A stretch of 64,000 nt of DNA. Origin: Bacteroidia bacterium (lineage in GTDB: Bacteria; Bacteroidota; Bacteroidia; Bacteroidales; VadinHA17). Position numbers and translations under genes: made by a program. A model generated the notes under the pieces. That model saw nothing but the letters and a program-made list of their open reading frames with translations, made no database searches and had not been told where the DNA came from. This document shows positions 31,473 through 53,765 of this stretch, piece after piece (within the stretch, counting starts at the first letter, position 1; every line of letters starts with the position of its first letter). The stretch covers positions 32,001 through 96,000 of the forward strand of contig JAPLDX010000060.1 in the NCBI GenBank assembly GCA_026391215.1. Reading direction: 5' to 3'.

Positions 31473-32510
31473 TTGGAACAAATAGTCATAAATACTCCTG
31501 GTGCCGTTTCAAATATTTTTGTCGGCGCAGCCTGGGAAACCACCTGGCAACATCTTCCGGAAGATGGTGTCGTAATAGTTACTGATAATAATGTTTATGA
31601 TCTTTATAGAGGAAAGTTCCCCGGATTCCCGGTCCTGAAAATCATCCCGGGGGAGGAGAGCAAGAGCCTGAAAGTTGTTGAGAAGCTTTCCGACAAGCTT
31701 TTGAAAACAGGTGTCGGACGTTCAGGATTTATCCTGGCAATAGGAGGGGGCGTGGTTTGCGATATAGCAGGATTTCTTGCCTCTGTTTTTATGAGAGGAA
31801 TACGCTGTGGCTATATTTCAACAAGCCTCCTTTCTCAGGTAGATGCAAGCACAGGAGGGAAAAACGGAGTCAACCTGGGAAAAATAAAAAATGTGATAGG
31901 GAATTTCAGACAGCCCGAGTTCGTTATATGCGACACTTCAATGCTGAAAACCCTTCCTGAAAAGGAGTATCTGTCAGGACTGGCCGAACTGATAAAGACC
32001 GGTCTGATAGGTGATCCATCAATTATTGCTTCGCTTGAAAATAAATATCAGGAAGTTATTTCGAGGAATAATGAATTTCTTTCAGACCTTGTTGCAAGGG
32101 CAGTGAGGTTTAAAGCATCAATAGTATCTCAGGATGAAAAGGAGAGTGGTGCAAGAAGGATATTGAATTTTGGCCATACCTTCGGACATGCCATAGAGCT
32201 TGTTGAATCAGCGAAACATGGATTTGCTGTTGCATCAGGTATGAAACTGGCAACACTTTTCTCACAGGAAAAAGGATATATCAGCGGTGCCGAGAGCAGC
32301 CGGATTATCAGCCTTCTGGAAAAATATAATCTTCTCGGGGAGTATCATCTTACAGTCGATAAAATGAGGGACCTTGTGATCCATGACAAGAAAAGGTCAG
32401 GTACAGATATCCATTTTGTATTCCTTGAAAGTATTGGTAACGGGATTGTGAGAAAAATTCCTGTTGACGAGGTTATTGAATTTTACAGGCACAATAACAC
32501 AGACAAATAA
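31473..32510 (+). CDS. aroB: 3-dehydroquinate synthase (start uncertain, TTG at 31473)
   Basis: GEESKS, AIGGGVVCD, QVDASTGGKNGVN, LNFGHTFGHAIE, HGFAVA, DKK. Confidence 0.93.
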   Translation: MEQIVINTPGAVSNIFVGAAWETTWQHLPEDGVVIVTDNNVYDLYRGKFPGFPVLKIIPGEESKSLKVVEKLSDKLLKTGVGRSGFILAIGGGVVCDIAGFLASVFMRGIRCGYISTSLLSQVDASTGGKNGVNLGKIKNVIGNFRQPEFVICDTSMLKTLPEKEYLSGLAELIKTGLIGDPSIIASLENKYQEVISRNNEFLSDLVARAVRFKASIVSQDEKESGARRILNFGHTFGHAIELVESAKHGFAVASGMKLATLFSQEKGYISGAESSRIISLLEKYNLLGEYHLTVDKMRDLVIHDKKRSGTDIHFVFLESIGNGIVRKIPVDEVIEFYRHNNTDK

Positions 32511-42119: not shown

Positions 42120-43610
42120 ATGAAGAAATCAGCTATAGTTTTTATGATAATGCTGGCAACTCTGACACAAGGTTTTGCCCAGCTTGCCGATGATGCTTTA
42201 AGATACTCCCAGTTATTCTATACGGGAACGGCAAGATTCATGTCAATGGGAGGAGCATTTACAGCCCTTGGCGGAGACATCTCCTCTCTAAGCCAGAATC
42301 CAGCAGGTATTGGCGTATTCCGTTCATCTGAGATAAGCATTACCCCTCAGTTGTTCCATATTAAAACCATTGCCGGACTGAATGGAACAGCTACATCCGA
42401 CTATATATATAATTTTAACCTGGCACAGGCAGGAATGGTCGCAAATATTGTTGACAACGATACGGAAACCGGACTTGTTTCCCTGAATTTCGGATACTCT
42501 TTTAATAAGACAAATAACCTGAATCAGAGCATTATAGTAAATGGTTACAGCGACTATAGTTCTTTGGCTGATCTGTGGACTGATAAGGCCGACGGAATAT
42601 ACAAGGACGAATTGATCAACGATGCTCCCGAATCTTACCTTGCATGGTCAACCTGGATCATTGACTCTCTCTCAGGCTCAAATACACATTATGGAACAGT
42701 CTTCTCAAACTATGGCGATAATCCTCCCTCCATTTACGGGCAAAATATGAACCGTCTGGTAAGTTATGAAGGATATACCGGTGAACATGCACTTTCGGTG
42801 GGGGGTAACCTTTCAAACAAGCTATATTTCGGAGCTACACTTGGCATCAGCCACCTGACCTACTCAAGCCAGTATGAACATGTTGAATCAACAGATGTCA
42901 GTTTACCTTCGCAATTTGAGAACTTCGATTATACATTCTTTTACAGTAACCAGGGAACAGGTTTCGGATTGAAACTGGGTGCAATTTACAGACCTCTGGA
43001 AATATTGCGGATTGGCTTTGCTTTCCACTCCCCGACAGTGTATAAGATCAATGAATATGTTTATGATAATATAACTTCGCATTTTTCAGATGGCGGAGGA
43101 TACAGTGAATCAAATTCACCGGTCCGCTATAGCTATGGTCTTACAACACCTTTCAGGGCAATGGTAGGAGCAGCTGTGCAGATCAAGAAGCTTGCACTTG
43201 TAAGCCTTGATTATGAGTTTGTTGATTACAGCACCGCAAAGTTCTCAGAAACAGGCGATGGTTATAATTACAGTGAAAAAAATTCGATTATCAGAAATAC
43301 TCTCAGATCAACTTCAAACCTGCGCCTTGGAGCAGAATTCCGACTTAACAAGCTTTACCTGAGAGGTGGATACGCATATTATGGGAAGGCATGGGAAAAG
43401 GATGATCTGAATGGTGACCTTAACTATAACTCTATTTCTTTCGGAGCAGGATTCCGGGAACAGAATGTTTTTATTGATTTCGGTTTTACAGGCATGATGA
43501 ATACTCATAATTATGTTCTGTATGATACAACTGTAGAGACCTTAATCTCTAAAATGGATATCAACAGGAATACGTATTCCGTCACTTTTGGCTACAAATT
43601 TGGCTACTAA
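42120..43610 (+). CDS. OmpP1/FadL family outer membrane transporter
   Basis: DALRYSQ..GTARFMSMGGAFTALGGD..NPAG hatch; C-terminal FGYKF strand. Confidence 0.88.
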   Translation: MKKSAIVFMIMLATLTQGFAQLADDALRYSQLFYTGTARFMSMGGAFTALGGDISSLSQNPAGIGVFRSSEISITPQLFHIKTIAGLNGTATSDYIYNFNLAQAGMVANIVDNDTETGLVSLNFGYSFNKTNNLNQSIIVNGYSDYSSLADLWTDKADGIYKDELINDAPESYLAWSTWIIDSLSGSNTHYGTVFSNYGDNPPSIYGQNMNRLVSYEGYTGEHALSVGGNLSNKLYFGATLGISHLTYSSQYEHVESTDVSLPSQFENFDYTFFYSNQGTGFGLKLGAIYRPLEILRIGFAFHSPTVYKINEYVYDNITSHFSDGGGYSESNSPVRYSYGLTTPFRAMVGAAVQIKKLALVSLDYEFVDYSTAKFSETGDGYNYSEKNSIIRNTLRSTSNLRLGAEFRLNKLYLRGGYAYYGKAWEKDDLNGDLNYNSISFGAGFREQNVFIDFGFTGMMNTHNYVLYDTTVETLISKMDINRNTYSVTFGYKFGY

Positions 43611-43631
43611 TACTTTGTTTGACTTCCTTGG

Positions 43632-43668
43632 AAGAGGCTGTTTCAGTTAAGACAGCCTCTTTCTTTTT
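43632..43668 (+). terminator. Rho-independent terminator
   Basis: AAGAGGCTGT / ACAGCCTCTT stem followed by a T-rich tract. Confidence 0.8.
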
Positions 43669-43676
43669 ATTTCATC

Positions 43677-44450
43677 CTATATCTTTTTTACCAGGGCGCT
43701 TCCGTTTTTGTCAGGCATAGGTACCGGTGACTCAGCTTTTTCTCTGAAAAACTCTTCAACAGCTTCATGTGCCCCGCTCCAGGTATTATAATCATGAATG
43801 ACCATATAGCCTCCCTTGCTCATCCTGGGATAAAAGAAATTCAGGGCAGCCAGCGTGGGCTCAAATAAATCCATGTCTATATGGATCAGTGAAAATGATC
43901 TTTCACTGAAATTCTCCGGTATCGAACCCGGAAATACCCCTTCAACAATCATAACATTATCATTTTTTGGTTTTATAAAACTGATTACGTCCTGTGCACC
44001 GGCGGATTTAAAATGACTTTGAATAGAATGACCTGTTCTGTCTTTTTCAACAGCAAGGTCATTCTTATCAAATCCTCCGTATGTATCAAACAGATATAAC
44101 ATTCTCTCAGGAACATAATAGTGTATAAGCTTTGCAGTAAAACCTTTATAAACCCCTAATTCAACAAGATCTCCCTTGACCTGATTCATCAGGATATCTT
44201 TTAATAGAAGGATCAGCATATCCCTGCGAACTATATCCCATGGCGTTTTATAGGATACTATTTCTCTCTTGATACTGTCATTTAAAATATAGAATCCTCC
44301 TGTTTTCTCAATAAACCTTAAATTGTAATATCTAGATTTTGGATGGATATCCATCTGGCTTTGCAGGTAAAATGACTGATCTGCAAATGATTTTGAGAGA
44401 TGCTGCAACAGCCTGCCAAAAATTTTATCTATATTAGGTTTAGTCCCCAT
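43677..44450 (-). CDS. TylF/MycF/NovP-family O-methyltransferase
   Basis: GDLVELGVYKG, LFDTYGGF, IHIDMDLFEP, VIHDY. Confidence 0.88.
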   Translation of the reverse strand: MGTKPNIDKIFGRLLQHLSKSFADQSFYLQSQMDIHPKSRYYNLRFIEKTGGFYILNDSIKREIVSYKTPWDIVRRDMLILLLKDILMNQVKGDLVELGVYKGFTAKLIHYYVPERMLYLFDTYGGFDKNDLAVEKDRTGHSIQSHFKSAGAQDVISFIKPKNDNVMIVEGVFPGSIPENFSERSFSLIHIDMDLFEPTLAALNFFYPRMSKGGYMVIHDYNTWSGAHEAVEEFFREKAESPVPMPDKNGSALVKKI

Positions 44451-44538
44451 TGAATAAACAGTTTGAAACAGTTGCTAATATAATTACAAATTGATAAGGA
44501 TTACTGAATGAGGTTCTTAAATTTCATAAGAGCAGGAT

Positions 44539-45144
44539 CTAAAGGTAATGCAGAGCATCTCTTCCAATATTGAAAATCAGGTCAACAATGCTTAGTCCTG
44601 GCACAAAAACCTTTCCGTTAGTGAAAACCTGCATATATTTTTTTGCAATATAGCCGGATTCTTTTTTTGGATTGATTGAATACCTGAAATCACTTTCGGA
44701 AATTCCAACAGGCATGAAATCAGTTGTATAGGATATATTTGCTTCAATGTTGATCATTTTCAGGACAGCTTTCAGCAGATCCATATTGAGGTCGAGAAGA
44801 AATTCATAATTGGAAAGAATTATTTTTTCAATGTTCTCATAATAATGGATGAAATAAGGAGATGATTTATATGATGCAGTTAAAGCACGAAGGTGAACCT
44901 GCTGCCATCTTTTGGAATAATCTATCCTTATCTCCCTGACAGGTGTCTTATGAATGCTTCCCAGATATACCGGAACAGTGAGAAGTTGCGGCCCGGAGGC
45001 TGAAAGAATATAGCAGCGATTGCGGTATGATTGCTTCAGGTAGTTTTCTTCTCTTTCAATAAGAGCCTCCTCAGTATGTATTATATGAGAAAAGTATTCA
45101 ACGGGAGGCAGGTAAGCTGAAGACAGTAATATATTACTGGCCAT
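44539..45144 (-). CDS. WbqC family protein
   Basis: YLPPVEYF, KQSYRNRC, LTVPV, YKSSPYF, LSIVDLIFNIG. Confidence 0.88.
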   Translation of the reverse strand: MASNILLSSAYLPPVEYFSHIIHTEEALIEREENYLKQSYRNRCYILSASGPQLLTVPVYLGSIHKTPVREIRIDYSKRWQQVHLRALTASYKSSPYFIHYYENIEKIILSNYEFLLDLNMDLLKAVLKMINIEANISYTTDFMPVGISESDFRYSINPKKESGYIAKKYMQVFTNGKVFVPGLSIVDLIFNIGRDALHYL

Positions 45145-45892
45145 AATTCATCCTGTTGATCATGCTTGCCGAGAAACCGGCTCCAAAACCATTATCAATA
45201 TTTACCACTGTTACTCCTGCTGAACAGCTGGTAAGCATTGCAAGAAGTGCAGAAATACCTCCGAAGCTGGCACCATAACCCACACTTGTCGGGACAGCAA
45301 TTACCGGTTTGTCGACCAGCCCGCCTACGACGCTGGCAAGAGCTCCTTCCATACCTGCAATAACAATTATTACGGCGCAGCTTCTTATTTCCGGTAGTTT
45401 ATCTACCAGCCTGTGGATCCCGGCAACACCTGCATCATATATCCTGATAACTTTATTGCCAAGAAGCTCTGCTGTGATAGCAGCTTCCTCTGCTACCGGA
45501 ATATCTGATGTGCCTGCTGTAATGACAGCTATAGTGCTTTCAGGAGCTTCCGGTTTTTCCTTCTGAACGGAAATGATCCTAGCCTCTTTGAAATAAACAG
45601 CCTGCGGAATAATATTTCTGACAGAATAGTACATTTCAACAGTAGCCCTTGTGCCAATGACATTGTTCTCTTTTTCAACCATAACTTTGAATATCCCCAT
45701 AACCTGTTCATTGGTCTTGCCGGCGCAATAGATTATTTCGGGATATCCTGTCCTTATTTCGCGGTGGTGGTCAATCCTGGCATAACCTAGATCTGTATAA
45801 GGGAATGTTCTGAGCTTTTCAAGAGCTTCTTCCGTGCTAATGGTTCCGGTATGGATATCCACAAGCAGTTTTTCAAGTTCTTTTCCTGTCAT
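45134..45892 (-). CDS. larB: Nickel pincer cofactor biosynthesis protein LarB (NaAD carboxylase/hydrolase)
   Basis: ARIDHHREIRTGYPE, AGTSDIPVAEEA, DAGVAGIHRL, AGMEGALASV, PTSVGYGA, SCSAGVTVVNIDNGFGA. Confidence 0.95.
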   Translation of the reverse strand: MTGKELEKLLVDIHTGTISTEEALEKLRTFPYTDLGYARIDHHREIRTGYPEIIYCAGKTNEQVMGIFKVMVEKENNVIGTRATVEMYYSVRNIIPQAVYFKEARIISVQKEKPEAPESTIAVITAGTSDIPVAEEAAITAELLGNKVIRIYDAGVAGIHRLVDKLPEIRSCAVIIVIAGMEGALASVVGGLVDKPVIAVPTSVGYGASFGGISALLAMLTSCSAGVTVVNIDNGFGAGFSASMINRMNYGQ

Positions 45893-46692
45893 GATTTTTC
45901 TTTTTCACAATCCATACTCCCGGTTCTGTACCCCTCGAGGTCCAAAGATATGTATCTGAATCCGATTTTTTTCAGATCGCTTACCATAAGTTCCCTGCCG
46001 GGATCATGAATTATCTTTTCAATATATCCTGGCAAGCATTCAATTCGGGCGATATCATCATGCATCCTTACCCTGGTTCCCGGATAACCACGTTCAAACA
46101 AAAGATCTTCAGCTTTCTCAATCATCTTAAGCATTTCCGCGGTCACCTTTGTATCATAGGGTATGCGAGTAAGGAGGCATGCCATAGCAGGTTTATCCCA
46201 TAGCGGCAGTCCTGCCCTTTGTGATAATCCCCTGATATCACTTTTCGTCAGCCCGGCCTCTGACAGAGGACTCATTATGCCCAGTTCCCTGAGAGCCTTG
46301 AGTCCTGGTCTGAACTCGCCTGTATCATCAGCATTGGTGCCGTCAATGACATATTTAAAGTTGTTTTTTCTGGCAAAAGCCAGTATTTCGCTGAAAAGAG
46401 TTTTTTTACACAGATAACACCTTTCTGTTGGATTGTGCCTGATGCTCTCTGGAAATTCCAGATCGATAATTTTATGATCAATACCCTGTTTTTCTGCAAA
46501 TTCAGCTGCCTCGCTTATCTCCCTTGCAGGGATATATGGTGTCCGTATTGTGACAGCCATTATACTGAGGCCGCTCAGCGATTTTGCCCTGTAAGCAAGA
46601 AAAGAACTGTCTACGCCTCCAGAAAATGCTATAACGAATGATTTGAGATCCTGTAATACCGAATCGAGCTTTATGGACTTGTTTTGTATCAT
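45889..46692 (-). CDS. larE: ATP-dependent sulfur transferase LarE
   Basis: PP-loop AFSGGVDS, RCYLCK, DGTNADD..RPG, ACLLTRIP, RVRMH..ARIE, LDLEGYRTGS. Confidence 0.93.
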   Translation of the reverse strand: MIQNKSIKLDSVLQDLKSFVIAFSGGVDSSFLAYRAKSLSGLSIMAVTIRTPYIPAREISEAAEFAEKQGIDHKIIDLEFPESIRHNPTERCYLCKKTLFSEILAFARKNNFKYVIDGTNADDTGEFRPGLKALRELGIMSPLSEAGLTKSDIRGLSQRAGLPLWDKPAMACLLTRIPYDTKVTAEMLKMIEKAEDLLFERGYPGTRVRMHDDIARIECLPGYIEKIIHDPGRELMVSDLKKIGFRYISLDLEGYRTGSMDCEKEKS

Positions 46693-47867
46693 CGTCTTTT
46701 GCTTTTAACCAGATGAGCCATAACATTATTATATACCTCTTTCACCGGTATCCCTTTTTCAAGTGCTATTTTACGGCATTCTTCAAATTCCGGCTTGCAG
46801 GAGACCTCCTTCCCCTGGTAGAAGGAACGCTTAATTTTAACATTTCCATAGAGTGTTCTGACGGTCTCCAGCTTCCTGACAAGGGTATCCTTCCTGAATG
46901 CAAAAGACCTGATGCCAACAGATGTTGATTCCGTGAAAATTATCTTTTTCAGAAGGTCATCTTTACCTTTTTCACAAATCACATTAAGGACATTTCCAGG
47001 TCTCCCTTTTTTCATTATGATGCCCGAAATATAAACATCTGAAGCACCTGCATCAAATAATCTTTGAGATATATGGTCAAAGAATTCCGGATTCATGTCA
47101 TCAATATTGCATTCAAGGAGAAGCGCCTCATGACCTGCTTCATTATCTTCACTCTCTCCAAGGAAAACCCTGAGAAGATTAGGCACATCCGGATGATCTT
47201 TCTGCCCGACTCCATATCCTGTTTTTTCAGTCTTGAATGCAGGGAGAGGATTGAAGTGTGTCCCGATGGTGGCTAAAATAGCAGCTCCCGTAGGAGTCGT
47301 GGCTTCAAAATCAACGCCTCCTTTTCTTACAGGTATTCCTTTTATTATTTCAGCTGTTGCAGGAGCAGGAACAGGAAGCCACCCATGATCGCATTTTACG
47401 AAACCGCTGCCCAACTCAACCGTGGAAACAAATACGGCATCAACCCTGAGCTTATTAAAACAGATTGCAGCACCAACAATATCAACAATAGAATCAATTG
47501 CTCCGACTTCATGAAAATGGACCTCATCGGAAGGTATGCCATGGACTAAAGCCTCTGCTTCAGCTACCTTCATAAATATTCTTATGCTAAGCTCTTTAGT
47601 TTTCTTGTCTAACCCTGATTCATTGATAATCTGTTCAATGTCAGAAAGATGCCTGTGTATTTTTTTGGATTTTGTCTGAATTACGGTAACTTTTGTTCCA
47701 TTAATACCATGTCTATGGTCTCTTTCTGCAGTCAGTTTCCATCCTTTCACATTCAGCATATTCAGCTGATCCAGCAGATATGACTCATCAATCCCAAGAT
47801 CTATCATAGCACCAAGATTCATATCGCCGCTTATACCTGAGAAACAATCGTAGCAGAGTATCTTCAT
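46689..47867 (-). CDS. larC: Nickel insertase (cyclometallase) LarC
   Basis: DCFSGISGDM, VHFHEVGAIDSIVD, HGWLPVPAPAT, TPTGAA, ECNIDDMNPE, MKKGRPG, KPEFEEC. Confidence 0.95.
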   Translation of the reverse strand: MKILCYDCFSGISGDMNLGAMIDLGIDESYLLDQLNMLNVKGWKLTAERDHRHGINGTKVTVIQTKSKKIHRHLSDIEQIINESGLDKKTKELSIRIFMKVAEAEALVHGIPSDEVHFHEVGAIDSIVDIVGAAICFNKLRVDAVFVSTVELGSGFVKCDHGWLPVPAPATAEIIKGIPVRKGGVDFEATTPTGAAILATIGTHFNPLPAFKTEKTGYGVGQKDHPDVPNLLRVFLGESEDNEAGHEALLLECNIDDMNPEFFDHISQRLFDAGASDVYISGIIMKKGRPGNVLNVICEKGKDDLLKKIIFTESTSVGIRSFAFRKDTLVRKLETVRTLYGNVKIKRSFYQGKEVSCKPEFEECRKIALEKGIPVKEVYNNVMAHLVKSKRR

Positions 47868-48052
47868 TTTATTATCGTTTAATGTATAGAACGAATATCA
47901 GAGGAACAATGTATTCTGATTTTTGTTGCTAATATAGTATTTTAACTATTACCCCCTCAACCAAATGAGTTATGCTGAGAGGGTACAGGATAACAAAAAA
48001 AGTTGTATTTTTCAGCCTTTATTCTATTTATATCTGAAAAAGTTATCCAAAC

Positions 48053-48973
48053 ATGAAAAGGAGGGACTTTCTTAAAAGATCGGCAGGTGCTGGTCTGGCT
48101 GCAGGAGCAGCATTAAGTATCGGGCAATATGAAAAATTATGGTCTGCTGCACCAGGAAGGGCAAAATATGATATGGTTGCAGTTATGGGAGGCAATCCCG
48201 ATGCCATGTTCGATCTCGGTATTCAGGAGCTTGGAGGACTTGGAGCATTTATCCAGAAAGGACAAAAAGTGCTGGTCAAGCCAAACATCGGATGGGATGT
48301 CGTCCCTGAACTGGCAGCAAATACAAATCCCATGCTGGTAAAAAGGATCATTGAACATTGTTTTAAAGCCGGGGCTAAAGAGGTATACGTGTTTGACCAT
48401 ACCTGTGATAACTGGGTCAATTGCTATAAAAACTCGGGCATTGAGAAAGCAGCAAAAGGAGCTGGTGCAAAAGTCGTTCCGGCGAATTCAGAGACATATT
48501 ATCAGCAGATAGAGATCCCTGGCGGAGTGAAGCTGAAAAGCGCAAAAGTACATGAGCTCCTTCTTGAAACAGATGTATTTATCAATGTTCCCATTCTGAA
48601 GGATCATAACTCCACAAGAATGACAAGCTGCCTTAAGAATATGATGGGAGTCGTCTGGGACAGGGGATACTGGCACTCTAATAATTTAAATCAGTGCATT
48701 GCTGATTATGCATTGTTTGAAAAGAAACCAGCCCTTAATATTATTGATTGCTTTAATGTTATGGTACAACATGGTCCTCAGGGTGTCTCGAAAGAAGACA
48801 TTGTCATGATGAAGTCGCTGATCATCACTTCAGACTGGGTTGCTGGTGATGCAGCAGCAGCAAGGATGCTGGGCATAGAAACCGAAAGAATTGAATATAT
48901 CCCGATTGCTCATAAAATGGGTCTGGGCAACATGGACATTGATTCACTTAATATAAAAAGAATTAAAATGTAA
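48053..48973 (+). CDS. Tat-exported DUF362 domain protein
   Basis: MKRRDFLK twin-arginine signal; VLVKPN, INVPILKDH, LKNMMG, IIDC, DWVAGD motifs of DUF362. Confidence 0.85.
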   Translation: MKRRDFLKRSAGAGLAAGAALSIGQYEKLWSAAPGRAKYDMVAVMGGNPDAMFDLGIQELGGLGAFIQKGQKVLVKPNIGWDVVPELAANTNPMLVKRIIEHCFKAGAKEVYVFDHTCDNWVNCYKNSGIEKAAKGAGAKVVPANSETYYQQIEIPGGVKLKSAKVHELLLETDVFINVPILKDHNSTRMTSCLKNMMGVVWDRGYWHSNNLNQCIADYALFEKKPALNIIDCFNVMVQHGPQGVSKEDIVMMKSLIITSDWVAGDAAAARMLGIETERIEYIPIAHKMGLGNMDIDSLNIKRIKM

Positions 48974-48979
48974 TTCCTG

Positions 48980-50539
48980 ATGAGGTCGCCATTATTAAGG
49001 ATTTTCCGTATTCTTATTTCAGCAATTGTCTTCATATGCTTTTTTATCATTTTTGCTGACTTTACCCACCTTATACCGGCAAAATATATCAACATAGTCC
49101 TCTACCTGCAGTTTATTCCATCCCTTCTTAATTTTCATGATCTTGGGACCTTTGCAGCAGCTGGTTTTGCAGTAGTTCTGATCCTTACTTTCCTGACAGG
49201 AAGGACTTACTGCTCGTTTCTTTGCCCGCTTGGTATCGGACAGGATATTAATAGCAGGATAGGAGGCCGTATCAAGAAGAAATTCAGGAGGTATGGCTAT
49301 AAGAAACCATTTACAATAATCAGGTATTCGATTCTGGCAATACTAATTGCAGTGACAATTGTGTGGGGAGTATATCTGCTTACCCTTCTTGATCCTTATA
49401 GCATTTTTGGAAGGTTCATGACCTATTTTGTAAAACCGGTGGTAATACTGATAAATAATTTTGTTGCCGGGATACTGGGAAAATTTGATGTATATTCCTT
49501 GAGCCATATACCGGTCAGGGGATACCAGATGCTTGCTTACTCAATACCTGTATTATTTTTTTTGCTTATTGGTATTCTCTCATTCACAAAGGGGCGTCTT
49601 TATTGCAATATGATATGTCCTGTCGGGACACTTCTGGGACTTCTCTCGAAAGTATCGATCTTCAGAATTAAGATCAATGAAAGCCAGTGTACAAAGTGCG
49701 GACGCTGTTCAATCGGATGTAAATCATCGTGCATTGATTTTCTTCAGCACCATGTCGACGTAAGCAGATGTGTAGGCTGCTTTAATTGTATCAAGATCTG
49801 TCAGGATAAAGCAATTTTTTTTGGTATTGTAACAAAGGGAAAGAAAGTCATTAAAACTGATGTTAAAAAGCGGAAATTCATTGAAGGATCAATCGCATTG
49901 CTTTTTGGCCTTCCATTTATTGCTAAAGGGCAGGATAAGAATCCACCGGTGCCAAAAAACGCTTCATCTGTAAAAGAAAACAAAACATTTCCGGTATGCC
50001 CGCCCGGAGGAGGATCGATAGAAGATTTCAATATAGATTGTACAGCCTGCTCGCTGTGCATTACAGCCTGCCCGAACAATGTCCTGCAACCCGCAATGCT
50101 TCAGTATGGTGTCAAAGGAATGATGCAGCCGGTAATGGATTATCACAAGAGTTTTTGCACATATAATTGTACAGTATGCACCGAAATATGCCCGACAAAT
50201 GCTCTTCGCCCCCTGACCCTTGAAGCCAAGAAACTAACCCAGATCGGCAAAGTAAATTTTATAAAGGACAATTGTATTGTAAAAACAGAGAAAACAGCTT
50301 GTGGAGCCTGCTCTGAATCGTGTCCTACAAAAGCTGTTTATATGGTGCCTTATGAAGGCAACCTCCTGATACCGGAGACTAATGTAGAAATTTGTATAGG
50401 CTGCGGTCATTGCGAATTTGCCTGCCCGACAACCCCATTTAAAGCAATTTTCGTGGATGGAAATCCTGTTCACGAGGCTGCAAAGAAGCCAGTGAATGTT
50501 GAGTCTGAAAAGGAGATACCTGTTGAATTCCCATTTTAA
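48980..50539 (+). CDS. Membrane-bound polyferredoxin (NapH/MauN-like fused to NapG/MauM-like)
   Basis: Several TM helices, two CxxxCP motifs, about six 4Fe-4S motifs, CPPGG preceding the NapG-like domain. Confidence 0.85.
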   Translation: MRSPLLRIFRILISAIVFICFFIIFADFTHLIPAKYINIVLYLQFIPSLLNFHDLGTFAAAGFAVVLILTFLTGRTYCSFLCPLGIGQDINSRIGGRIKKKFRRYGYKKPFTIIRYSILAILIAVTIVWGVYLLTLLDPYSIFGRFMTYFVKPVVILINNFVAGILGKFDVYSLSHIPVRGYQMLAYSIPVLFFLLIGILSFTKGRLYCNMICPVGTLLGLLSKVSIFRIKINESQCTKCGRCSIGCKSSCIDFLQHHVDVSRCVGCFNCIKICQDKAIFFGIVTKGKKVIKTDVKKRKFIEGSIALLFGLPFIAKGQDKNPPVPKNASSVKENKTFPVCPPGGGSIEDFNIDCTACSLCITACPNNVLQPAMLQYGVKGMMQPVMDYHKSFCTYNCTVCTEICPTNALRPLTLEAKKLTQIGKVNFIKDNCIVKTEKTACGACSESCPTKAVYMVPYEGNLLIPETNVEICIGCGHCEFACPTTPFKAIFVDGNPVHEAAKKPVNVESEKEIPVEFPF

Positions 50540-50554
50540 ACCTGATCCGGAACT

Positions 50555-50965
50555 ATGGAACCATCGCATATTGAACATATAGGAATTGCTGTCTCCAACC
50601 TGGAAGCATCAATTGATTTTTATGAAAAAGTATTTGGGCTGAAATGCTACAAGGTTGAAGATGTCCCTGATCAGAAAGTAAGAACTGCTTTCTTCAGGAT
50701 AGGACAGACAAAGATTGAACTTCTCGAATCAACCGATCCTCAGGGACCAATCGGAAAATTCATAAGCAAAAGAGGTGAAGGAATTCATCATATTGCTTTT
50801 GCAGTCAAAGACATTGAAAAACAGTTAAAGCACGCAGAAGAGAAGGGTGTCACGCTTATTGATTCAACTCCGAGAAAAGGCGCTGAGAAGCTTGATATTG
50901 CATTTCTTCATCCGAAATCAGCATCCGGAGTATTGATCGAATTATGTGAAGACAAAAACAGCTAA
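50555..50965 (+). CDS. mce: Methylmalonyl-CoA epimerase (VOC superfamily)
   Basis: IEHIGIAV, KIELLE, GEGIHHIAF, AFLHPKSASGVLIELCE. Confidence 0.88.
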   Translation: MEPSHIEHIGIAVSNLEASIDFYEKVFGLKCYKVEDVPDQKVRTAFFRIGQTKIELLESTDPQGPIGKFISKRGEGIHHIAFAVKDIEKQLKHAEEKGVTLIDSTPRKGAEKLDIAFLHPKSASGVLIELCEDKNS

Positions 50966-50977
50966 TTGAAATCAATT

Positions 50978-52186
50978 ATGAAGAAATTTACAGTTACTGC
51001 CGGCAATGCAGGACCCAAAGTAAGATCGGACTGTGAAATAACCCTTGAGCTGAAGGAAAGAGGCGGTATTGAAATTGACCTTACATCAAAAGTGAAAGCC
51101 CTTTATGGTGATTCAATAACCAGCCTCTGCAGGGAAGTTCTCACATTCTTTAAGATCAGGAATGCCAGGGTGACTGTAACTGACTCGGGAGCGCTCCCCT
51201 TTGTTATCGCTGCGAGGATCGAAGCCGCTGTCAGGAGACTGAAAGACACTGACCTCGAATTCCTTCCGGAACTGATAAAGGAGAACATGTATTCAACTAC
51301 CGGAGACAGATTCCGGTTTTCCCGGCTCTACCTTCCGGGCAATACTCCCAGCATGATGCTAAATGCAGGCCTGCATTCAGCCGATGGGATCATTCTTGAC
51401 CTCGAAGATTCAGTAGCTCCTGAAAAAAAGGATGAGGCAAGGATACTGGTCAGAAACGCTCTCCGGCAAGTGGATTTCAGGGGAGCCGAAAGAATGGTCA
51501 GGATAAACCAGGGGGAAGCCGGACTCAAGGATCTGCAATATGTCGTATCTCATAATGTTAATCTTATCCTGGTTCCAAAATGCGAGTTACCGGACCATGT
51601 AAAGATTGTTGACAGTGAAATTTCTGCTATAAGGAAAAGAACAGGTATAAAGTATCCTGTGTTCCTGATGCCGATTATTGAAAGTGCGCTTGGAATTGAA
51701 AATTCAACAGATATAGCAAGGGCTTCAGAAAATATAGTTGCACTGGCTATCGGTCTCGAAGATTTTACTGCCGACCTGGGAGTTCCCAGAACTGCTGAAG
51801 GTAAGGAGTCATTATACGCCAGGAGCAGGTTGGTGATAGCCGCTAAGGCTGCAGGTGTGCAGCCGATTGATTCCGTCTTCTCCGACGTTTCCGATATGGA
51901 AGCATTAAGGCAAAATGTCATGAATTCCAAAGCACTTGGTTTTGAAGGAATGGGATGCATTCATCCCAGGCAGGTTGCTGTTATTAACCAGGGATTTGCA
52001 CCTGATGAATCTGAAATAGAAAAATCCGTGAAGATTGTGGCTGCATATGAGGAAGCCAGGAAAAGGGGAGACGGAGTTGCAGCGGTCGGATCAAAAATGA
52101 TTGATCAGCCTGTTGTCCTCAGGGCTCAGAAAACCATCAGTCTGGCAAGAAAACTCGGCAGGATGCCAAAAGACAGTTCAAGTTAA
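50978..52186 (+). CDS. citE: Fused citrate lyase acyl-carrier (CitD-like) and citryl-CoA lyase beta subunit (CitE-like)
   Basis: N-terminal AG..SD..S.V..LYG..I..D.GAL.FVI.AR.EAA (CitD-like); [38 protein letters not shown] (CitE). Confidence 0.82.
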   Translation: MKKFTVTAGNAGPKVRSDCEITLELKERGGIEIDLTSKVKALYGDSITSLCREVLTFFKIRNARVTVTDSGALPFVIAARIEAAVRRLKDTDLEFLPELIKENMYSTTGDRFRFSRLYLPGNTPSMMLNAGLHSADGIILDLEDSVAPEKKDEARILVRNALRQVDFRGAERMVRINQGEAGLKDLQYVVSHNVNLILVPKCELPDHVKIVDSEISAIRKRTGIKYPVFLMPIIESALGIENSTDIARASENIVALAIGLEDFTADLGVPRTAEGKESLYARSRLVIAAKAAGVQPIDSVFSDVSDMEALRQNVMNSKALGFEGMGCIHPRQVAVINQGFAPDESEIEKSVKIVAAYEEARKRGDGVAAVGSKMIDQPVVLRAQKTISLARKLGRMPKDSSS

Positions 52187-52205
52187 TAAGTTAGTATTCA
52201 ATGAT

Positions 52206-53765
52206 ATGGCTGTAAAAACAGTAATCAATGCTGCAGGCAGGTCAGTACCGCTGGAAATAAACGGGAAGCCTGTTATCCCATTCAAAGGCGTGGGCAAACA
52301 CAGACCGGTAGGAGGGAAATATTCCCCGCCTATCCCTGTCTGCTCGGATTTTCCGGACAATGGGAACAAGGTTGTAAGGTCACTTGAAGAAGCACTGAAG
52401 TTATGCGGCCTTCGCAACGGTATGACTATCTCGACCCATCATCATTTAAGGGACGGCGACCTGATAAACAACAGTATTTTTGAAATTGCATCGGCGATGG
52501 GAGTGAAGGACCTGGTATGGTTCCCTTCAGCATCATTTCCATGCAATGATCCTGTGATCAAATATCTCGATAATGGTACAATAAACAGGATTGAGGGCAG
52601 CATGAATGGCCCCCTTGGACGCTATGTATCAGATGGTAAAATGAAGGGAACGGCTGTTCTCAGGTCTCATGGAGGAAGAGTTCAGGCAATACAGGACGGC
52701 GAAGTAAAGATCGATATTGCAGTTCTTGCTGCACCTTCTGCCGATTCATTCGGAAATGCAAGAGGAACTGGAGGGAACTCATCGTGTGGCGTTATCGGAT
52801 ATGCCAAAGCTGACAGCATGTATGCATCCAAAGTAATCGTTATCACAGACAACCTCGTTGATATGCCATGCTTCCCTATGGAAATAGAAGGCAATTATGT
52901 GGATTATGTTGTGGTTGTCGATAAGATCGGCATACCTGAAAAAATAGTCTCAGGAACAACAGAAATAACCAAAAGTCCTGACAGGCTGCTTATAGCTGAA
53001 CTGACTGCTTCATTTCTTGAAAAATCAGGAATACTGAAAGATGGAGTAACTATGCAGGCAGGAGCAGGAGGGACTTCCCTTGCTATAGCAGTTTTTGTTC
53101 ACCAGATACTTAAGCAGAAAGGGTGGAAATCAAAATTCGGCTTTGGCGGAAGCACAAAGTACATGGTTAAGATGCTTGAGGAGGGACAGATGGGTTATAT
53201 ACTTGATGCACAGGCATTTGATCTTGATGCGGTCAAGTCTGTGGAAACTAATCCAAATCATGTTCCCTACCCGGTTTTCAATGCCTATAATTACCATTCA
53301 AAGGGCAACCTGACAAGCATGATGGATATTATGATCCTTGGAGCGACCGAAGTGGACCTGAATTTTAATGGGAATGTCGTGACCCATTCCGATGGCTATC
53401 TTCTTCATGGCATAGGCGGATGGCAAAATTGCCTTCATGCCAGGAATGTCATTCTTCCGCTTCCTCTCTTCAGGGACAGGATACCTGTGATAGTTGATGA
53501 AGTGACTACCCTGTGTGGTCCTGGTGAACTTATTGATGTGATAATTACGGAAAGGGGAATTGCAATAAATCCTTTACGTAAAGACCTGATAAAGAGCATA
53601 AAAGGCAGCGGGCTTCCTTTGAAAACAATAAAGGAACTTAAGGATGAGGCTGAAAGAATATGCGGTAAACCTAAGAAAGCGCAGTTTGAAGACAAAATTG
53701 TGGCAGCAATAAAATGGGTGGATGGTACCGTCATAGATGTGGTACGAAAAATCAAAACAAAATAA
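52206..53765 (+). CDS. citF: Citrate lyase alpha subunit / citrate CoA-transferase
   Basis: [59 protein letters not shown]. Confidence 0.9.

Follow-up and report, generated by a model that had tools for sequence, protein, structure and literature searches.

A Tat-signal DUF362 protein with a LarA-type pocket, paired with a polyferredoxin beside larC, larE and larB in a Bacteroidia bacterium

In LarA of Lactiplantibacillus plantarum (5HUQ) the N-terminal domain binds the cofactor and the C-terminal domain binds the substrate, and His108 and His174 form the catalytic pair, as the initial annotation of the locus described here had correctly stated (PMC12611868). The related GntE2 of Thermotoga maritima (4NAR), a D-gluconate 2-epimerase, is a two-domain cytoplasmic enzyme with all of the LarA motifs, and experiments reported in PMC7583248 show that its activity requires the nickel-pincer nucleotide (NPN). 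The clients added since, according to PMC13524815, are aldo-keto reductases (AKRs) and one cyclodeaminase only. About 15% of genomes have larB, larC and larE without larA, most cyanobacteria included, and PMC11796402 states that the cyanobacterial NPN client is unknown and expects its fold to be distinct from that of LarA. DUF362 belongs with DUF2088 to Pfam clan CL0471 and serves as the outgroup of the LarA tree (PMC11770544; see also PMC7955657); the annotation had likewise grouped DUF362 with the LarA N-terminal fold, and these sources bear it out. Here we describe a DUF362-family gene, referred to as DUF362-A, in a stretch of 64,000 nucleotides (the window; positions 32,001 to 96,000 of the forward strand of contig JAPLDX010000060.1, assembly GCA_026391215.1) from a Bacteroidia bacterium of the VadinHA17 lineage. 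Its product is a single-domain protein that is homologous to the N-terminal, cofactor-binding domain of LarA, carries a twin-arginine (Tat) signal and keeps a LarA-type pocket (N78, D174, H185, K195 and H208); the gene lies beside larC, larE and larB and directly precedes a polyferredoxin gene.

DUF362-A (48053..48973, + strand) encodes 306 amino acids (aa) and matches PF04015 (DUF362) over profile positions 1-200 of 200 (E 7.9e-47; 160.3 bits versus a cut-off of 24). DUF362 is the sole family found in a Pfam scan at E ≤ 0.01, with no match to Lar_N (PF09861), and a Lar_N search of the whole of its own genome gave a match on contig C69 and none in DUF362-A. The Tat signal, MKRRDFLKRSAGAGLAAGAALS (48053..48118, +), contains the motif RRDFLK and scores 22.2 bits against TIGR01409 (TAT_signal_seq; cut-off 16.7). 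A search for relatives of the subfamily returned 5178 representative clusters at E ≤ 0.001, from which we aligned 122 full-length representatives (31-52% identity) with the query; a Tat-like motif is present in 102 rows of this 123-row alignment. Some relatives appear longer and 'fused'; in ten of these, Pfam showed nothing beyond DUF362, the Tat signal and a single PMT_2 match below threshold, and for most of them a wrongly called start is the probable cause. For comparisons at closer range we used a Bacteroidota sample of 301 genomes, all at least 90% complete. Apart from the window's own genome, 34 encode a full-length ortholog (E ≤ 1e-80, 44-61% identity), and the completeness of these 34 is 99% or more.

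The likeness to LarA is clearest in the predicted fold. The AlphaFold2 model of DUF362-A, built from the 123-row alignment, has a mean predicted local distance difference test (pLDDT) of 94.5 and a predicted template modelling score (pTM) of 0.87. Searched with Foldseek against the PDB it gave 19 matches at E ≤ 0.001, and ranks 1-12, 14 and 17 are LarA-family chains, with E values from 3.0e-6 to 1.4e-4 (3.0e-6 to 1.6e-5 for ranks 1-12). VIA-align against 48,161 representative chains placed five LarA-family entries at Z 15.8-18.1, with root-mean-square deviations (rmsd) of 2.7-3.3 over 204-214 aligned residues, while the next match stands at Z 5.8; the values are Z 17.0, rmsd 2.9 and 208 residues for LarA (5HUQ) and Z 16.0 for GntE2 (4NAR). 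Residues 45-277 of the model align with residues 35-270 of 5huq_A, which is the N-terminal domain of LarA only. LarA chains are 401-452 residues long and the match covers approximately 35-270, so that DUF362-A does not share the two-domain architecture.

We placed the pocket residues with the help of an alignment of 20 LarA-family proteins from genomes of the same phylum (A2), in which D73, T75, R76, H108, H174, K184 and H200 are invariant. In LarA, Lys184 is presumably the NPN tether and His200 the nickel ligand, numbers that agree with the invariant K184 and H200 of A2. Comparing the DUF362 alignment with A2 by hhalign gave a single short alignment (E 0.016-0.028, probability 1.8-2.8%), used for the register only, in which D174 corresponds to D163, H185 to H174 and K195 to K184. 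The correspondence of H185-x9-K195 (48605..48637, +) with LarA H174-x9-K184 is thus statistically weak, and it is consistent with the aligned structural ranges. H208 (48674..48676, +), at K+13, is a candidate counterpart of LarA H200 (K+16) on the grounds of its conservation and of the predicted ferredoxin interface described below; the gapless hhalign alignment puts it opposite LarA position 197, a match with H200 would need a three-residue indel, and the equivalent histidine of other DUF362 subfamilies lies at K+13 to K+16.

The stretch that contains these residues (48395..48676, +; residues 115-208) includes D115, H116, C118, D174, N178, K183, H185, K195, N196 and H208. The initial annotation drew attention to H116, H185, K195 and H208, whose codons do start at 48398, 48605, 48635 and 48674, and the spacings it gave, H-x9-K and a histidine at K+13, are present in the open reading frame (ORF). 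The motif goes beyond chance: 113 of the 123 representatives retain H185, 114 retain K195 and 111 retain H208. That annotation proposed an active site homologous to that of LarA. The fold and the register of H185 and K195 with H174 and K184 uphold this, and we regard homology of the DUF362-A pocket with the LarA site as supported by the model and the alignments together, whereas its choice of H116 as the second catalytic histidine, equivalent to His108, is not supported: H116 (48398..48400, +) is histidine in only 50 of 123 rows (arginine in 25, asparagine in 23) and asparagine in 7 of the 34 orthologs. The aligned structural ranges are offset by about 10-11 residues, from which we infer that C118 (48404..48406, +) and not H116 sits at roughly the LarA H108 position. 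C118 is invariant in the 35 orthologs (the window's own included) and is cysteine in 67 of the 123 wider relatives; since isoleucine, leucine, valine or phenylalanine takes its place in 44 of them it cannot be a general ligand, and C118, H185 and H208 as a family-wide Cys-His-His metal site was set aside.

The partner of DUF362-A is a polyferredoxin of 519 aa (48980..50539, +; Pfam Fer4_5 twice and Fer4 families) that starts 6 bp after it. A polyferredoxin lies directly 3' of DUF362-A in 33 of the 34 ortholog loci, and in the 34th the contig stops 334 bases after the gene; the pair is a conserved unit. A search for a third conserved neighbour gave an apparent cluster of 34 loci that proved to be DUF362 itself merged with a paralog, and a second Tat-DUF362 gene adjoins the pair in two loci only (L126 and L127). 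The N-terminal part of the polyferredoxin, a NapH/MauN-like membrane portion, carries two CX3CP motifs and two cluster motifs, and the C-terminal part has four 4Fe-4S motifs with an invariant cysteine pattern. Between them lies an internal Tat-like motif, K-R-K-F-I here and RRxF[LI] in relatives (49868..49882, +), whose R298 is invariant in 34 sequences and which is followed by a hydrophobic stretch and the ferredoxin domain. The two-module build is confirmed by one subclade (L168 7588-9151 (+), L169 and L170), in which the polyferredoxin is split into a 299-aa Fer4_5 membrane ORF and a 223-aa Tat-signal ferredoxin ORF. In genome G168 the ferredoxin module has an ORF to itself, which opens with a plain Tat signal (start MDKSRREAIKKGFLLF), and because of this ORF and the internal RRxF[LI] motif we infer that the module is periplasmic, like NapG.

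The partner therefore recalls NapG/NapH and MauM/MauN in having a CX3CP membrane part and a NapG/NapF-like four-cluster ferredoxin behind a Tat-type signal. Judged by sequence the likeness is one of architecture only: the NCBIfam scores are all under their cut-offs (TIGR02163 NapH 80.3 versus 213, NF007013 72.5 versus 234, NF007012 44.8 versus 269), the two parts are fused in most genomes, and the periplasmic client would be a DUF362 protein rather than the molybdo- or haem enzyme of the known systems.

A model of the complex between DUF362-A residues 36-306 and the C-terminal ferredoxin domain (residues 320-519; 49937..50539, +) supports binding of the two, with an interaction prediction score from aligned errors (ipSAE) of 0.65 (0.65, 0.63 and 0.68 in separate runs) against 0.00 for the best of three controls; in calibration 58 of 80 solved complexes attained the mark, as did 2 of 110 mismatched pairs. 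The pLDDT of the partner is 88 and at least 90% of the contacts recur between runs; because sequence searches found no solved DUF362 structure, the pass does not reflect a memorized one. The ferredoxin domain is predicted to dock on the H185/H208/C118 face: the interface on DUF362-A comprises residues 118-120, 185-188, 205, 208-213 and 238-246, and that of the partner the loop 441-451, which holds the cluster ligands C441, C444 and C448 and an invariant E446 that touches the C118/H185/H208 region. The modelled contact thus indirectly places C118, H185 and H208 on one surface patch; K195 is not listed in the interface. Other DUF362 subfamilies carry a two-cluster ferredoxin domain nested directly after the equivalent histidine, so that iron-sulfur clusters beside the pocket appear as a theme of the family.

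Upstream of DUF362-A and divergent from it lie larC (nickel insertion/cyclometallase; 46689..47867, −; PF01969 E 5e-145, TIGR00299 222.5 bits versus 90, NF052512 130.9 bits versus 50), larE (sulfur insertase; 45889..46692, −; TIGR00268 303.6 bits versus 150) and larB (NaAD carboxylase/hydrolase; 45134..45892, −; NF033503 300.3 bits versus 175), all three above their NCBIfam equivalog cut-offs. The intergenic region between larC and DUF362-A is 185 bp long (47868..48052). Neither these genes nor the polyferredoxin downstream had been mentioned in the initial annotation. The adjacency is kept in 78 of 80 species-level relatives of the window lineage (77-88% identity), the other two having less than 400 bases of upstream sequence at the locus, but it counts as one evolutionary event because the whole neighbourhood is syntenic. 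The sample also has seven genomes from other families of this order; LarC was found in none of them, and three carry DUF362-A and the polyferredoxin. A second, independent adjacency is found in G168, where DUF362-A, the polyferredoxin (as two ORFs), larC, larE and larB form a one-strand cluster; this is the only LarC-positive genome of 17 in its family, and it has no Lar_N match.

Sporadic lar clusters elsewhere in the Bacteroidota sample are instructive with regard to their neighbours. In G199 (the one LarC-positive genome of 49 in its family; L317 1-5621) and G214 (one of eight; L316 6343-10361) AKRs flank larC-larE-larB, and since AKRs are a proven class of NPN client (PMC13524815) these loci indicate that lar clusters tend to travel with clients; the cluster of G064 has no obvious client. 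G209 and G217 are the only LarC-positive and the only DUF362-positive genomes of 63 in their family and lack Lar_N; in G209 (L158 5572-9872, +; also G217 contig C25) a gene for a 487-aa DUF362 protein is followed by larC, a larE fragment and larB. The G209 cluster lies amid glycan-type genes, of which the ATP-grasp gene was recognized by Pfam and the glycosyltransferase-like ORFs were judged by eye. In the Cyanobacteriota-phylum sample, the 2.3-Mb genome G404 has a one-strand lar cluster (L309 3899-14725, −) that begins with a split DUF362 gene, a flavodoxin, a Tat-signal lipoprotein AKR with Fe-S motifs, a polyferredoxin homologue and TatC and continues with larB, larC (N-terminal part), CbiM, larE, a CMD/cupin protein and DUF362. 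The G404 polyferredoxin homologue is 32% identical to that of the window (E 1.75e-62) and has an internal ERRQII motif. The G404 AKR may or may not be of the NPN type: NphT (9yeb_A) is the 11th of its 34 PDB matches (E 1.3e-8). With the window, G168 and G404, there are three cases of a polyferredoxin of this kind next to lar genes, all of them with a Tat-signal protein.

The wider distribution of the genes points in the same direction. Within the Bacteroidota sample LarC occurs in 33 of 301 genomes and LarB in 32, all LarB-positive genomes being LarC-positive, and a DUF362 protein of any type is present in 29 of the 33 LarC-positive versus 28 of the 268 LarC-negative genomes. LarC without Lar_N is seen in 14 genomes: DUF362 is encoded in 11, and AKRs adjoin the lar genes in two of the remaining three. 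Among 111 genomes of the phylum Cyanobacteriota, DUF362 is found in 56, LarC in 69, both in 52 and Lar_N in 6, so that DUF362 accompanies 52 of the 69 LarC-positive genomes versus 4 of the 42 LarC-negative ones; no Lar_N match was obtained in 63 of the 69, and 47 of these 63 have DUF362. Five named cyanobacteria all have DUF362 and LarC, one has Lar_N, and the genes are not adjacent. Raw Fisher values overstate the association because kin are not independent, and the absence of Lar_N is a soft statement because the model misses some LarA homologues: the search gave no match in Corynebacterium glutamicum despite the GntE1 listed for this species in PMC7583248.

The cyanobacterial DUF362 proteins are represented by the Npun_F2552 family (NF052623); a strong match of this type was obtained in 37 sampled genomes, every one of them LarC-positive. 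These DUF362 proteins, about 320-340 aa long, share with DUF362-A the motifs K-P-N, D, K-x-H-x9-K-N and W-H; their identity to it is about 22-25%, they have neither a Tat signal nor a polyferredoxin neighbour, and in the two genomes inspected their genes are not adjacent to lar genes. Npun_F2552-type loci in the Cyanobacteriota-phylum sample (G301-G413) are L303-L307, L310 and L311.

DUF362-A may accordingly be compared with each of the described NPN systems. It shares with LarA the N-terminal cofactor-domain fold, the Pfam clan, the aligned aspartate, H-x9-K and later histidine, and the proximity of larB, larC and larE; it departs from LarA in the missing Lar_N match, the position of the later histidine, the Tat signal, the obligate iron-sulfur partner and the features of the site discussed below. 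GntE2-type proteins have the same superfamily fold and, like DUF362-A, occur with intact site residues in LarB/LarC-negative genomes. NphT and other NPN-dependent AKRs (PMC13524815, 9YEB) provide a precedent for non-LarA genes with a His/Lys pair beside larBCE, although they are TIM-barrel proteins unrelated to LarA or DUF362, and NphT, a soluble protein, lacks an iron-sulfur partner. The PMC13524815 study sought clients without LarA homology, and its main text does not contain the term 'DUF'. Our own literature search, in main texts only, found no link between DUF362 and NPN apart from the use of DUF362 as an outgroup.

Our verdict is that DUF362-A is probably a periplasmic redox subunit with a LarA-type pocket, and its fold, register and partner are well supported. 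We envisage that DUF362-A and the polyferredoxin would be assembled in, or exported to, the periplasm, where the ferredoxin domain would cap the pocket in place of the LarA C-terminal domain and bring one 4Fe-4S cluster next to H185, H208 and C118, the pair acting as a quinone-linked periplasmic oxidoreductase. The weakest step is the proposal that the pocket holds NPN, or a derivative of it, made by the products of the neighbouring larB, larE and larC; K195 would then be its tether or anchor, H208 the fourth nickel ligand, and two-electron (hydride) chemistry at the pincer would be relayed one electron at a time through the clusters. We put this prediction only a little short of an even chance. 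It is favoured by the two independent lar adjacencies and by the behaviour of the other DUF362 types.

Several observations weigh against an NPN-containing pocket. LarC and LarB are both missing from 22 of the 34 ortholog genomes; LarE is above its cut-off in none of the ten LarC-negative ortholog genomes examined. All 22 of these orthologs keep K76, P77, N78, D115, C118, H185, K195, N196, H208 and D232, one of them having alanine at the D174 position. The initial annotation had named equal conservation of H185, K195 and H208 in genomes without NPN biosynthesis genes as an outcome that would refute it, and this is the pattern that the 22 present. Moreover, 50 positions are invariant over all 35 orthologs, lar-positive and lar-negative alike, and a search for residues common to both lar-adjacent DUF362-A proteins and rare in the lar-less orthologs yielded K288 only, which is far from the site. 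The ten loci with relatives of the G168 protein (52-58% identity) include the polyferredoxin, whereas lar genes are absent from the surrounding 8 kb, Bacteroides thetaiotaomicron has a DUF362 match and no LarC match, and H-x9-K-N...H is common across the DUF362 family, including genomes without LarC. The LarA relationship itself lacks significance at the sequence level, as the low hhalign probability illustrates: phmmer of DUF362-A against PDB sequences gave two matches, both at E ≥ 1 and neither of them LarA, and the 123-row profile gave nine (E 0.035-2.1), mostly to Tat signals and none to LarA. The site differs too, in that the counterpart of His108 is not a histidine, the H185-K195 loop lacks the glycine richness of its LarA equivalent, and both the PD.TR motif and the C-domain are absent. 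No NPN enzyme with iron-sulfur partners is described in the main texts that we searched. Finally, the window's own genome encodes a GntE-type LarA homologue on contig C69, cut by the contig end (4nar_A, E 6.7e-24), which could alone explain the lar genes as their client.

These observations can be accommodated if the same fold and pocket serve another occupant, with a His/His/Lys/Asp site (and C118 in the orthologs) that binds either a metal (possibly nickel or iron) or some other small cofactor within the biosynthetic reach of all carriers, and receives electrons from the 4Fe-4S cluster of the partner; the lar genes would then be adjacent through a need for nickel, through shared regulation, or in the service of a GntE-type homologue elsewhere in the genome. 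This is a serious possibility, though we lean against it. In its favour are the lar-less majority of orthologs with identical sites, the lack of a His108 counterpart, the loop unlike that of LarA, the iron-sulfur partner, the family-wide occurrence of the motif and the presence of a known type of NPN client in the same genome. Nested ferredoxin domains and a docked 4Fe-4S loop that faces C118, H185 and H208 would suit one-electron chemistry at a metal site, and the CbiM nickel/cobalt uptake gene in the G404 cluster indicates that nickel-related genes do cluster. A paralog in G212 (second copy; L125 4920-5909, +; 46% identity, no polyferredoxin neighbour) has lost K76, N78, D115, C118, H185, K195 and H208 together, as expected of one functional site, and looks like a degenerate copy. 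Yet two independent juxtapositions with larCEB are very unlikely by chance (roughly one gene pair in 3000 per event), further sporadic lar clusters of the sample adjoin clients, and the replacement of C118 in wider relatives does not suit a metal site that includes it. The argument from missing lar genes also applies equally to proteins with intact NPN residues: GntE-type LarA homologues occur in 19 of the 301 genomes, and ten of these genomes (G104, G276, G120, G140, G164, G230 and G100, at loci L144, L147, L149, L152, L153, L155 and L156, with G288, G232 and G096) lack LarC and LarB, LarE being below its cut-off in all eight of the ten that were examined. Seven of these ten homologues are included in A2, with the equivalents of D73, T75, R76, H108, H174, K184 and H200 invariant. 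The keeping of a site without lar genes therefore discriminates poorly, because the NPN-dependent GntE-type family shows the same pattern, which suggests that lar-less carriers obtain the cofactor from outside or that LarA-type pockets work without the pincer; orthologs of DUF362-A in lar-less genomes would likewise depend on an outside cofactor, or the NPN claim fails for them.

A further alternative is that DUF362-A is not a catalyst at all but serves the polyferredoxin in the periplasm as an adaptor, chaperone or cofactor carrier, or captures the pincer cofactor, its conserved residues being used for binding only. It does consist of the cofactor-binding half of LarA only, one catalytic histidine has no counterpart, the pairing with the polyferredoxin is constant, and GntE-type homologues are almost confined to genomes with the DUF362-A/polyferredoxin pair (17 of 19 at the ortholog threshold). 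This co-occurrence follows family lines, however; the 50 invariant positions, several of them charged or aromatic and located around the site, resemble an active site, and a four-cluster ferredoxin wire that ends at a non-catalytic protein has no obvious purpose, so that we consider such a role very unlikely.

The rest of the neighbourhood adds some detail. The start of a WbqC-like gene (44539..45144, −; PF08889 E 9.7e-39) overlaps the end of larB, and with this gene a TylF-like O-methyltransferase gene (43677..44450, −; PF05711 E 9.2e-24) makes up the end of the lar operon; the WbqC gene was seen in 70 of the 80 related loci, and the two products could modify the pincer cofactor or represent another client. 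An Rfam search of 43000-51000 gave no match at E ≤ 1, and a promoter and terminator scan gave 13 promoter-like sites versus 9.7 +/- 3.3 in shuffles, thus no sigma-70-like excess, and no terminator. After the polyferredoxin (50555-53765, +) come a glyoxalase-family gene, separated by a 15-bp gap, a fused ACP-CitE gene and citF, whose synteny is kept among close relatives only. The genome has seven more DUF362 matches, on contigs C9, C62/C106, C66, C91, C111 and C130, and H-x9-K-N is present in six of the seven. In the C9 copy the conserved histidine is directly followed by an inserted two-cluster ferredoxin domain, and the loop H-x3-GFGGxLK of this copy resembles LarA H-x3-GFSGGxK; the C130 copy, which has a Tat signal, has alanine where the conserved histidine is expected.

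DUF362 is a very large family without assigned function, and either outcome for the pocket would be informative about it. On the widest interpretation DUF362 would be a second large nickel-pincer branch, represented here by the first periplasmic NPN enzyme and the first to be wired through 4Fe-4S clusters to the quinone pool; the Npun_F2552 proteins would be the cyanobacterial NPN user, and the lar-less carriers would live on the pincer cofactor of their neighbours. We regard this combination as rather unlikely, but if true it would mean that hydride chemistry at the pincer feeds respiratory electron flow. Should the pocket prove to have another occupant, the family would show a role for the LarA fold before or beside the pincer cofactor, and a conserved lysine and histidine must not be taken as NPN binding; if it holds the pincer cofactor, thousands of proteins would gain a cofactor, and NPN chemistry would extend to electron transfer and to the periplasm.

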